Shown here one piece after another: positions 3,632 to 23,621 of a DNA stretch of 64,000 nucleotides (positions within the stretch are counted from its first letter, which is position 1; every line of letters starts with the position of its first letter). The DNA comes from Nitrospirales bacterium (GTDB taxonomy: Bacteria; Nitrospirota; Nitrospiria; Nitrospirales; UBA8639). Position numbers and translations under genes: made by a program. The stretch is from assembly GCA_963555755.3 (NCBI GenBank), contig OY820905.2, positions 2,400,001 to 2,464,000 of the forward strand, given 5' to 3'. The notes beneath the pieces were generated by a model. It made no database searches and was not told the DNA's origin. It saw nothing but the letters and a program-made list of their open reading frames with translations.

Positions 3632-3653
3632 GATGATTGGAAGATGAGATATG

Positions 3654-3800
3654 CTATCTCTTTCTAGCCGCGGCCTTTTTCTTGGCTGGTGCTTTTTTCT
3701 TAGCCGCCTTTTTCTTGGCTGGTGCTTTTTTCTTAGCCGGTGCCTTTTTCTTAGCCGGTGCTTTTTTCTTTGCCGGTGCTTTCTTCTTTGCTGTCGCCAA
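3654..3800 (-). CDS. Small Lys/Ala/Pro-rich histone H1-like DNA-binding protein 2
   Basis: TTG start after AAAGGGGGTGA RBS; MATAKKKAPAKKK...ARKR, 48 aa. Confidence 0.75.
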   Translation of the reverse strand: MATAKKKAPAKKKAPAKKKAPAKKKAPAKKKAAKKKAPAKKKAAARKR

Positions 3801-4182
3801 TACGCTCACCCCCTTTCCTGAATTAAGTGAAAACCTGTCCAACTATCCGTTCGAATCTCTCACGATAAAGAGCCACAGAGAAAAACCGTTTTGGGACTCT
3901 ATGTGAAATCTGTCCTCTGTCATACCCTGGTAATGATCAAAAACCTCTTTCATTCCTCCGCCTACCCAAACCTCCGCTAAAAAAAAACACTTCAGGAGCA
4001 GGTGGCCCTACTCTCGACGGCACTGTTGGAGGTTTGGAAATACTGAATGGTTTTGCGAACGCAGGAGATTGGCCACTTGTTCCATCCTTACCGTGGAGTT
4101 TCTGACTCGATCGCTTTTCATTCCTACTGGCAATTGACTCATCTCCCTGTGAGTTAGAACGTCACCGTATGCGATGAGAGGC

Positions 4183-5179: not shown

Positions 5180-6382
<1,203 letters not shown>

Positions 6383-15158: not shown

Positions 15159-16384
15159 CTATGCATTGGCGCGAAGGTGCTGCCTCGCCATGTTGGCTAA
15201 ATGATATTGTTCATCATACGGGACCTGATGCTGCCACATGCGAAAAATAATCTTGAGCCATTTCGCCCCCAAGGCCCGCATCGCCTGATTATGCCGATGC
15301 CCACGAGCCCGACATTGCTGATAGTAACTCTTGGCCCACTCACTCTGAGTCAGCGACTGAAAGGCCACCCACCACATGGCTTGCCGCAGGGGCTTGTTAC
15401 ACGCCACGCGGTATCGCACCACACAACTTTTCCCACTCTGCCGCGTGACGGGTACCGTCCCCGCCTCGGCCTGCAGCTGGGCCCACGAAGTCCAGCGGCT
15501 CGGGGCATCGCCCAGTTCGGCCCACACCCGCGGAATGATGGTGCCGCTTTTCCCTCCCGGCAAGCTCTGCATCCACCTAGCCGCCGGGAGGGTCGCGAAA
15601 AAACGTTCGATCTCCGCATGATACTCTTTCACCACGCGGTGCGTGAGCACGAGCTGGGCCACTAGGGCCTCCATCAGTCGGGCCTTACTCCGCACAACAT
15701 GCGCAGGCACGAGCATTTGCGGGGCCTTCAGCTGTTCCCACCCCGCCGCCGTGCGGGCTGGCCCTAGCCGATGGGCCCGTGCAAAGCGCTGCCACTTGCT
15801 TTTCTTCAGTGTGGTCACAGCTGCGGGGGTGGAATAGGTTTGCAGAAAATCCACTGCCATCTGCGTCGTCAGATCCGGAAACAGTTCCAACACCCGCGGA
15901 TAGTAATCTTGTAAGGTGCTCGTCAGCTGATTCAGGATGCGGGTCTGCTGGTGCTGCAACCGCCGATGATCCTGAGTCAACAGTTTTAACTCTTGTGCAG
16001 CGGCCGAACTAGGCTGCAGCGCCCGGAGATGCGGATGATCGGTCCGCACCACCTCCGCCAGCACGCGCCCATCAAAGCGATCACTTTTTGAGGAACTCAT
16101 GCGGAAACGATCTCGGGCCCGATCCAGCGCTTTCGGATTCACCGGATACACCACCACCCCATGATCCAACAAAAACTCCACGACACGCCCGGTGGGTCGC
16201 TCAATGGCTGCCCACACCTCCACCCCAGCTGCGCGCCAGGTATCCACGCGCCAGCCCCACTCCCGTAAGCCCTTCGGCGTGTGAGCCACTAGGTCCTCCC
16301 ACACGATGGTGCCGGGGTCTCATCTTGCACACAAACCCCATGCTGCTCGTTGCCCCAATCGACCCCCAGGTAATATCGTGGCAT
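15159..16384 (-). pseudogene. IS110 recombinase with a frameshift near 16314-16317
   Basis: ATG 16384 after AAGGAGAGG gives MPRYYLGVDWG..; continues in another frame as GTIVWEDLV..AIERPTG..KSDRFDG..RQSGK; span 1226 nt is not a multiple of 3. Confidence 0.85.
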
Positions 16385-18948: not shown

Positions 18949-19018
18949 GTCATTTCGAGTGAAGAGAGAAATCTTGAACGTTGCCGAACTACAGATTTCT
19001 CCCAAGGGTCGAATTGAC
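18949..19018. repeat. REP-like doublet hairpin (family R)
   Basis: gtcatttcgag..gagaaatct / agatttctcccaagggtcgaattgac; same units at 21751, 21814 and 23271. Confidence 0.75.
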
Positions 19019-19099
19019 AGAAAGAAAACTCAGCTTAGAAATAGGTGAGGGAAAATTGGGATGAATAAATGGCAAGGAGAAATGGTAGATCTTTGTCCC

Positions 19100-21430: not shown

Positions 21431-21927
21431 AGGTGCATCTATAAAAAAACAGTTGAATAATTCAAATATTTGTGAGTTTTCCAGGGACGGTCTAACCGCC
21501 TCAATTGTCAGAAGGAAAGGGGTTGTTCAAAAAGGCCCATTGTCTGACCCGCCCAACCCAGGCGCGCTAAGACGCGCCCTTCCACAGGCAAGGCCGCAGG
21601 GGCTCCCGGCCTTCGTAGCCACTTCGGCGGAGTAGGCTTGGCGCGCGGAGCGTAGGTGAGTACGTGAGCACGACAAAGGGGATCAATCCCAATTTTGGTG
21701 GAGTAAGGCGAAACCCTCTTACACTCCGCCCGTATCACCCCTCGTCCATTGTCATTTTGACCCTTGGGAGAACTCTCCCCCATTCCCGCCCGGGTCACGT
21801 TCTTTCGGGCCAAGAGATTTCTCCCAAGGGTCGAAATAATGGTATGGACTCCCCCTTTGAGGACGGCATCAAATGTGCCAAGCTGGAAGACTAACCAACC
21901 AGCACTCAACACAAAGGAGGAGTCAGC

Positions 21928-22950
21928 ATGAACGGTACCACGATTGGCGTTGACATTGCGAAGAACGTATTTGAGATCTACGTGGAAGACGAAGCGGGGC
22001 AGGTGGTGGAACGCCGCCGCCTGTCTCGGAAGAAGATGTTGCCCTGGTTTGCGAATCGTCCCCGCGCGGTGGTGGGAATGGAAGCCTGTGGGGGCGCCCA
22101 TTATTGGGCCCGCGAATGAGAAAAGCTCGGCCATGAGGTGCGGCTGATTGCTCCGCAGTATGTGAAGCCGTGGGTGCAGACCAACAAAAGTGATTCGGTG
22201 GATGCCCGAGCCATCTGTCGTGCGGTGCGCGAACCCGGGATGCGGTTTGTCGCGATTGCCAGCGAAGCCCAGCAAGCGGTCCAGGCCTTTCATCGAGTCC
22301 GCAGCCGGTTGATGGGCAATCGGACCGCGCTGGTGAATCAGATCCGTGGGATCTTGTTGGAATATGGGGTCGCTATCCCCAAGGGCGTGGCCTCGGTCCG
22401 CAAGGCATTCCCCCTGCTTCTGGCCGAAGAACGGTGGGCGCCGCTGGTCCGGCAATTCTTGGTGGAGCAACAAGCGGAGCTGCTGAATTGGGATGCCCGG
22501 ATTGAGGAAGTCACCAACCACATCAAGCAGGAGAGTGCCACTCAGCCGGTGTGTCAGCGACTGGAGCAGGTGCGCGGGATTGGCCCGCTGTCGGCCTCGG
22601 CCCTGTGGCTCAAAGCAGCGGGGCAGCCGTATCAGAATGGGCGACACGTAGCGGCCGCCCTCGGCCTGGTGCCCAAGCATACCGGGACGGGGGGCAAGAT
22701 TCGGTTAGGGGGGATCAGTAAACGCGGGGACCGGTATCTCCGGCGATTGCTGATTCATGGGGCCCGGGCCGTGATCAGGCAGGTGGGCGAGAAACCGGAT
22801 CGGCTGAGTGGCTGGCTCCGGGAGCTCGTGGCCCGGCGCGGCATAAATAAAGCGGTGGTGGCGCTCGCGAATAAGAATGCCCGCGTGGCCTTCGCCATCA
22901 TGCATGGAGACCAGCCATATGATGTGACGAAAATGTGTCAGGCGTCATAA
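21928..22950 (+). pseudogene. IS1111 recombinase with in-frame TGA at 22117-22119
   Basis: GVDIAKNVF, GMEACGGAHYWARE*EKLGHEVRLI, KSDSVDA, ALANKNAR. Confidence 0.9.
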
Positions 22951-23160
22951 GACGGAGGAAGATCTTTCCAAGGATTGCGTAGCAGGAAATCCCAACTGAT
23001 GGGCGAAAGCGGTCACCCCCGCGGGAGCAAACCCTGAGTTCTGTCATCGGCTGAGTCATCAAGCCGGCGAAATGCATAGGAGCTTCCGCGCGAAAACCAT
23101 CAAGGCTCGGAACACAGAAGGTTCCATGACGAAGCCGGATATATGACAGCAGACCCGCTC
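22951..23160 (+). ncRNA. Putative seek/bridge RNA of IS1111 element 3 (ends approximate)
   Basis: TTCTGTCAT (23039-23047) and CGAAAT (23068-23073) flank a cggct/agccg stem and match the two halves of the insertion site. Confidence 0.75.
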
Positions 23161-23621
23161 CTTATCAGATGGTAATCCCGCTTGCAAAACAGGGGGAGTC
23201 CATATATGACAGAAGGAAGCCTTCTCGTTGTTCATCCAACCAGACTTGCTCCTTACCACTTCCGCCTCTTGTCATTTCGACCCTTGGGAGAAATCTCGCC
23301 ATTCCTGCCACGCCTGAGCAGGCTGTTCCCCCCTCAACACGGTCCCCATGACCTGCGGCGGGCCATGGAATAGGTCCCAATTCCACCAAAATGGCAACTG
23401 GTCCGACAAAGGCCCAAGAACGCCGCTGGCCTGCCTGCCATAGCCTTGGCGAAGGCTGGCGGACTTTTTCAACAACCCCTAAATTTCTTGACACAACTGA
23501 GGACCCTGTGATACCTCTCAAGTCTCACCATCCGTCTCGGGGCATGAGCATTTCGCCCTTTGTCAGAATCAACAAGTTCGCGGCTGCACATTCCTTGGAG
23601 AGGAATTATTAAGGAGTACGA

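Follow-up and report, generated by a model that had tools for sequence, protein, structure and literature searches.

A single-copy IS1111-group insertion sequence in a TGTC-tagged repeat of a Nitrospirales genome, its predicted target guide RNA and its in-frame stop codon

The element and its insertion site

The window analysed here is a stretch of 64,000 nucleotides from the genome of a Nitrospirales bacterium (G000 below), and it carries an insertion sequence of the IS1111 group whose parts are collected in Table 1. An earlier note, made from the letters alone, had placed such an element over this span around an AT core, with an empty site reading TTCTGTC-AT-TTCG on the minus strand. Direct reading bears out both the span and the core, and the empty site reads back in this form once the flanks are joined. 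The subterminal inverted repeats are 13 bp long, perfect and set in from the ends, as is characteristic of the IS1111 group. The ends of the element are fixed because the host repeat of 355 bp has 11 empty paralogues (83-97% identity) that close up across a single AT. We conclude that the locus is an IS1111-type element, and every sequence claim of the earlier note was confirmed.

The element is present in one copy in G000. The only other trace in that genome is a left-end remnant of a sibling (C1:1323898-1324028), in which the gene ends about 12 codons in and whose flank, GGGC-AT, is the target type of two relatives (L046 and L056). Contigs of three sequencing runs from two studies (X2, X4 and X6, one of which may be the source sample itself) span the whole element at the depth of the neighbouring single-copy DNA and contain no second insertion.

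Three levels of nesting were seen at 21518-23482, where the insertion sequence lies in the 355-bp REP-rich repeat and this repeat lies in a second repeat family, of which there are several more copies within the window. Two more IS110-family transposase genes are found in the window (15159-16304, minus strand, and near 5351), and a profile search of G000 gave 22 IS110-family ORF hits, several of them in identical multi-copy sets. Positions 2558-2715 and 3652-3809 hold 18-bp tandem units which, on the minus strand, would encode lysine/alanine-rich, histone-H1-like repeats.

Table 1. Features of the element and of the neighbouring repeat arms, in positions of the window
Feature	Position	Strand	Remarks
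IS1111-group insertion sequence, core to core	21836..23207	+	1372 bp including both AT
AT core, left copy	21836..21837		AT in 25/25 scored left junctions of relatives
AT core, right copy	23206..23207		
Left subterminal inverted repeat TATGGACTCCCCC	21843..21855	+	7 nt inside core start
Right subterminal inverted repeat GGGGGAGTCCATA	23192..23204	+	
Host composite repeat, about 355 bp when empty	21680..23405		Three REP arms; split by the insertion sequence
Occupied TGTC-tagged REP arm, hairpin part	21814..21835	-	GTC tag at 23208-23210
Neighbouring REP arm, empty, AT core intact	23270..23297	+	60 bp right of element
IS110-family DEDD transposase gene, 340 codons	21928..22950	+	NF033542, 312 bits (cut-off 140)
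In-frame TGA, codon 64	22117..22119	+	Leu/Val/Ile in clade relatives
Predicted bridge/seek RNA region	22971..23150	+	Target-binding loop, then donor-binding loop; approximate ends; z -2.35
Target guide 1 TTCTGTCAT (predicted)	23039..23047	+	Complement of core and right flank; GTCAT invariant in family
Stem cggct/agccg between target guides	23048..23066	+	cggct 23048-23052, agccg 23062-23066; fold pairs 81-87 with 93-100
Target guide 2 CGAAAT (predicted)	23068..23073	+	Left flank and core; reprogrammed part
Candidate donor guide ACCAT	23096..23100	+	Matches left end, bottom strand TACCATT; conserved
Candidate donor guide ATATAT	23139..23144	+	Right end and core; invariant 24/24
-35 hexamer TTGCAA	23182..23187	+	TTGC invariant in 24/24 aligned copies
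REP arm with TT for AT (19014-19015), empty, gaaTTgac	18994..19022	-	1 of 2 non-AT arms among 172

Predicted guide RNA and its covariation with insertion sites

According to the earlier note, an RNA encoded 3' of the gene reads a REP arm around the AT core. The target guides TTCTGTCAT (9/9) and CGAAAT (6/6) are present with the stem between them, as are the two sequences proposed as donor guides. The non-coding region 3' of the gene matches each target strand once, with the top-strand complement first, which is the IS1111 layout. When the 257-nt non-coding region was simulated 200,000 times under a Markov model, the chance of the 9-mer was 0.00034, that of the 6-mer 0.127 and that of both, in order and within 60 nt, 0.00001. 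In the consensus fold of 24 copies, the two target guides lie together in a single internal loop, and a second hairpin has the donor candidates around it; compensatory change was seen in 5 of the 54 stem pairs, which are mostly invariant. Donor guides and element ends are likewise invariant across the 24 aligned copies and, since the donor ends do not vary, covariation cannot probe the donor guides, whose assignment is a prediction.

Relatives of the element were found in genomes (16 loci, with titles nearly all Nitrospirota, and a few more from whole-genome searches) and in metagenomes (80 loci, some 15 of which belong to the same clade). The broad genome search was sparse, with any match in 7 of 61 relatives. 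G061 is a genome that carries several relatives; in its phylum, 2 of the 400 genomes searched match at E<=1e-20. The closest intact relative (L031) comes from a contig of 1.9 kb that was binned as Anaerolineae, whereas the other named holders are nearly all Nitrospirota, which suggests misbinning or transfer. For the covariation set, 32 loci were examined and 25 left junctions scored. Excluded from one or both counts were L080 (RNA region missing), L083 and L084 (unparsed guides, which read GGGAAT in the alignment, the same as their flanks), L038, L055 and L056 (left flank absent), L045 (left junction short of one base), and L037, L079 and L081 (right flank cut).

Across the 25 insertions, guide 2 agreed with the flank beside it at 99 of the 100 variable bases, compared with 60 after shuffling (p 0.00005), and the outer four bases of guide 1 matched at 52 of 100 compared with 34.5 (p 0.00015; 20, 17, 8 and 7 of 25 with distance), uncollapsed p values that overstate the effect because kin share guides. 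Six guide-2 types occur (CGAA, GGGA, GGGG, GGGC, CAGG and CAGA) and each fits its own flank, an arrangement that is 1 of 720 permutations. The GAC of guide 1 matches at 74 of 75 positions and never varies, so that across the family GTC-AT stays constant while guide 2 changes. All 25 scored left junctions carry the guide-2 flank on the left, that is, in one orientation. Congeneric partial copies lie at other sites, with the flanks TTCGAA-AT (L012) and AT-GACAGAAGG (L013). The closest relatives of the window copy use a GGGA guide, so its own CGAA guide, which fits the dominant subtype in G000, is likely a derived state. A search for insertions lacking a guide match, the finding that the earlier note held would speak against it, turned up none: even the three of 30 evaluable sites that lie outside a recognisable REP hairpin (L037, L039 and L044) match the guide. 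The guide-flank covariation in relatives strengthens the proposal of a 3' guide RNA that reads the arm around its core, and at the level of sequence comparison, RNA guidance of the family is supported.

Circularisation in silico reproduced the predicted junction TTGCAA-N17-TATAAT, with a spacer of 17. The circle joint was not seen in the contigs of four runs, which cannot show rare forms, and one RNA run (X14) reaches no more than 223 nt of the transposase gene.

The target repeat and its subtypes

The consensus arm of G000 reads TGTCATTTCGA-N6-GGAGAAATCT, with the T of the tag in 120 of 125 arms, and in it the CGTC/TGTC tag is unpaired and the stem behind the tag begins with AT. By its sequence, the target repeat belongs with the CGTC-tagged REPs as a TGTC variant. 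In this class AT forms the first stem pair, and one member is Neisseria dRS3, its CGTC-1 REP (PMC3733652); the class also takes in NTS, which is the same repeat as dRS3, and the Ssn-related motifs (PMC11893778). The window site needs two substitutions to fit the published SRM pattern, and 1, 9 and 18 of the 26 reconstructed family sites fit at 0, 1 and 2 substitutions; for fits at up to two substitutions, the background is 423 of 5075 NGTCAT sites. An ORF of 97 aa with a GIY-YIG domain (PF01541; G000:C1:2204228-2204446) has several TGTCATTTCGA arms on both sides (locus L156, G000:C1:2202728-2205946). It is one of two small GIY-YIG hits in G000, the other of which (L158) has no flanking arms, and judged from this arrangement it likely encodes the Ssn-type nuclease of the main REP family of G000. 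At G000:C1:1430350-1430811, six REP arms lie at 91-97 bp spacing, each of them a perfect empty target.

REP subtypes were counted with four subtype 10-mers, given here in the order CGAA/CAGG/GGGA/CAGA; a further genome, G064, was counted for one subtype only. Counts were 213/13/59/34 in G000 (guide CGAA), 11/17/33/9 in G061 (guide GGGA in three copies), 11/35/29/16 in G062 and 14/54/18/24 in G063 (guide CAGG in two copies each), and 7/37/16/11 in G065 (guide CAGG). The commonest guide is that of the commonest of the four subtypes in all five genomes scored, which amounts to about three independent cases, the CAGG guide being that of one clade. Minority guides fall off this trend, CAGA being the rarest of the four subtypes in G061 and the second in G063. 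It is likely that guide change tracks repeat type and lets the family follow the common REP of its host. A more distant IS1111 element, at 44% aa and with an HSSGG loop, is also present in G061 in six copies (L063-L068); their left flank is a different one that contains TAA, and they form a second natural target series.

Transposase, in-frame stop codon and mobility

In the transposase, the residues D9, E52, D89 and D92 are invariant. Profile alignment sets Thr254-Gly255 on Ser241-Gly242 of IS621 (PKHTGTG versus PRRYESG, E 1.7e-17), and by this alignment Thr254 would be equivalent to Ser241, the nucleophile in the IS621 structure (PMC11208158). The GL-P----S(t)G motif is present as GLVPKHTGTGG; 65 of 71 clade proteins have HTGTGG and five more HEGTGG or HAGTGG, none of them with serine. 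Threonine at the catalytic position was rejected as a novelty, since 'SG or TG' has been described there for IS1111 (PMC11187229). We found no publication on a threonine nucleophile in IS110 transposases, and a single-sequence PDB search with the transposase gave no match.

The nonsense codon noticed earlier in the enzyme is real: the contigs of all three full-coverage runs span the element without a single difference, TGA64 included, and an assembly error was rejected on this ground. Of the four low-share runs X8-X11, those that cover the site are X10 and X11, and both contain relatives with T at 22118 (depth 111.9/111.9 and 99.9/110.8). Alignment rows reading 'GAC TGA -CG' were BLASTN gap artefacts for which tblastn gives CTG. 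Selenocysteine or reassignment of TGA was also rejected, since SelA was not found in G000 or G061, no TGA-reading tRNA was found, and TGA terminates 384 of 1053 long ORFs, which is normal stop use. The same TGA64 occurs in three copies in G061 (L032, L033 and L043; 86% aa) at three sites, each fitting its own GGGAAT guide, which shows that they moved once the stop had arisen. The left end is longer by about 100 bp in L032 and L033, and L043 is frameshifted. No DNA patch around codon 64 is shared with the G061 copies beyond about 8 nt, and a shared gene-conversion patch was therefore rejected. Between the window copy and the G061 copies dS is 0.60, with a dN/dS of 0.09 before the stop and 0.12 after it; these values exclude an old dead gene and imply that the stop is either read through or arose twice recently.

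If TGA64 were an inherited leaky stop, near-cognate read-through would keep the transposase low and the element would be attenuated, not dead. Such a stop would fit its sharing between the window copy and the three G061 copies at guide-matching sites, the low dN/dS on both sides and the confinement of all TGA64 copies to one clade of three lineages (98/98); two independent and identical T-to-G nonsense changes would be a chance event of the order of 0.1, if not less, reckoned from 110 single-step routes and 5 nonsense lineages. Yet in the protein tree the Leu-bearing (TTA) lineage L031/P0123 is sister to the window copy (96/85), the DNA tree leaving the three lineages unresolved, and among 102 full-length homologues position 64 is occupied by L, V, I, M or F and in none by W or C. 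There is no sign of selenocysteine machinery, the low dN/dS is equally expected if both stops are recent, and of the 63-aa N-terminal product ending in WARE there is one among the 120 short homologues listed, the G061 copy itself. In G061 there is also an intact sibling, L035, that shares these ends, and the enzyme and RNA of ISEc11 work in trans (PMC11187229). We found no publication on read-through of an in-frame stop in IS110 elements. Read-through is unlikely on this balance, and recurrent nonsense with mobilisation in trans is favoured over it, with a good probability of being right.

How the element chooses its sites, and how the window copy came to its own, can also be read in other ways. 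The enzyme may need a REP hairpin in addition to the guide match, a dual sequence-structure gate of the kind reported for ISPpu10 (10.64898/2026.03.19.712850). With that precedent, and with 27 of the 30 evaluable left flanks resembling CGTC-type hairpins (25 by tail pattern, 2 by eye), the gate has some chance of being real, but we doubt it: the guide is matched at L037, L039 and L044, where no hairpin can be recognised, and 176 of the 240 guide-matching 9-mers in G000 are REP arms, so that sequence alone predicts mostly REP landings. Arrival of the window copy by gene conversion between REP arms, and not by its own recombinase, is suggested by the loop of the occupied arm, CAAGGG (21825-21830), which differs from the TTGCAC or TTACAC of all 11 empty paralogues, core exchange alone being expected to keep the target loop. 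However, with this loop the occupied arm forms an inverted repeat of 24 bp, perfect throughout, with 23274-23297. Local template switching therefore accounts for the loop with the insertion sequence unmoved, and the right flank is the host repeat's own; conversion is accordingly very improbable.

The earlier note had further read the empty arm near 19008-19022 as an immune site. Its core is indeed changed to gaaTTgac, the arm is a perfect target save for that core, and going by IS621, in which pairing to both core strands is strongly preferred (PMC11208160), it would probably resist insertion. The immune reading itself fails. Since the element is single-copy, the emptiness of this arm is uninformative: all 32 exact CGAA-AT-GACAGAA sites in G000 are empty, and so are the 170 of 172 REP arms that keep the AT core (one substitution allowed outside the core), among them the TT arm's partner, at about 18949-18974, and the one at 23274-23297. 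Scoring occupied against empty arms for the AT core genome-wide, as had been suggested, therefore did not bear it out. Escape of arms by selected core mutation also runs against the lack of pressure from one dead copy and against the repeat's own reasons for conserving AT, the first stem pair of its class (PMC3733652); the idea is effectively refuted by these counts and has next to no probability left.

We conclude, with a probability of roughly 0.8, that the locus holds a single-copy IS1111-group insertion sequence in a TGTC-tagged repeat, whose 3' RNA is predicted to guide it to GTC-AT and the first four stem bases, and which is likely immobile alone because of its fixed stop codon. By analogy with ISEc11 and IS621, the ends of such an element would join into a circle, creating the TTGCAA-N17-TATAAT promoter from which transposase and RNA would be expressed. 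The covariation shows that guide 1 reads AT, GAC and up to four loose bases and that guide 2 reads four bases and AT nearly without error, which also fixes a single orientation despite the self-complementary AT. Following the IS621 structure, the DEDD residues and Thr254, in place of Ser241, would carry out the strand exchange at the core. The bases that read the tag are fixed throughout the family, and guide 2 has been rewritten into six types, each fitting a REP subtype; selection may favour guides that fit the host's abundant subtype, which would offer a large supply of harmless intergenic sites. TGA64 would have arisen twice from TTA, and stop-bearing copies would move only with enzyme from an intact sibling, a supply possible in G061 and not in G000.

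RNA-guided REP targeting by IS1111 and IS110 elements is already established, and the single locus is ordinary in this respect: for IS1111, publications cover seekRNAs, natural reprogramming, promoters at the junction and, in ISPa11, the targeting of REPs (PMC11187229), and IS621 (PMC11208160), ISPpu9 (PMC12288879) and ISPpu10 (10.64898/2026.03.19.712850) use REPs. With ISEc11, ISPa11 and ISKpn4 (PMC11187229) the element shares a DEDD transposase of 330-350 aa with the 'SG or TG' form of the motif, subterminal repeats, a non-coding region 3' of the gene within which a complement of the top strand comes ahead of a match to the bottom strand, a junction promoter (here in silico) and natural reprogramming. 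ISPa11 targets REPs of P. aeruginosa, and REP targeting is common to our family. Unlike these elements, however, the family targets a TGTC/CGTC-class (SRM-like) REP, has a serine-free PKHTGTGG loop and shows six guide types against REP subtypes, and the window copy has a stop. IS621 has the same 7+2 and 4+2 target geometry at a 2-nt core, target and donor loops and REP sites (PMC11208160, PMC11208158), but belongs to the IS110 group with a left-end RNA and a CT core, whereas the present element has a right-end RNA, a self-complementary AT core and Thr.

The IS110 transposase of the Neisseria phage Nf1 also lands in a CGTC-class repeat, dRS3 (PMC7058167), and one family site (L081) is nearly the NTS consensus (PMC11893778); the Nf1 enzyme is described as using a CT motif within dRS3, and what it moves is a phage, in contrast to the insertion of the present family at the GTC-AT tag. 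As in the Ssn/SRM system (PMC11893778), the GIY-YIG gene of G000 has the targeted repeat on either side of it, although this repeat fits the SRM pattern only if two substitutions are allowed. ISPpu10 and ISPpu9 are likewise IS110-family elements in REP-type repeats with a trans-acting recombinase, but they sit in Pseudomonas repeats, and the hairpin gate is one reported for ISPpu10. We found no published IS1111 family fixed on GTC-AT/CGTC tags; supplements and ISfinder entries, which lay outside the search, may hold one.

A broader and rather unlikely picture would have the clade specialise in parasitising the repeats of the Ssn nuclease. In its guide, one half would be locked on the GTC-AT tag that this single-strand nuclease of the host needs, and the other half would chase the dominant subtype of each host, and insertion would strip the hairpin of its tag; one sub-lineage would have throttled itself through a shared leaky TGA64, its RNA steering by means of sibling enzymes.

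The family constitutes a natural reprogramming series, with six guide-2 types over about 25 insertions, in which 4+AT+3 is strict and the outer four bases are loose, and in which a self-complementary AT core goes with one orientation. Its serine-free loop offers a clean test system for a threonine nucleophile. The family also ties bridge/seekRNA elements to CGTC-class repeats, which have been described as lacking a dedicated transposase, and guide-repeat co-evolution thereby becomes testable.
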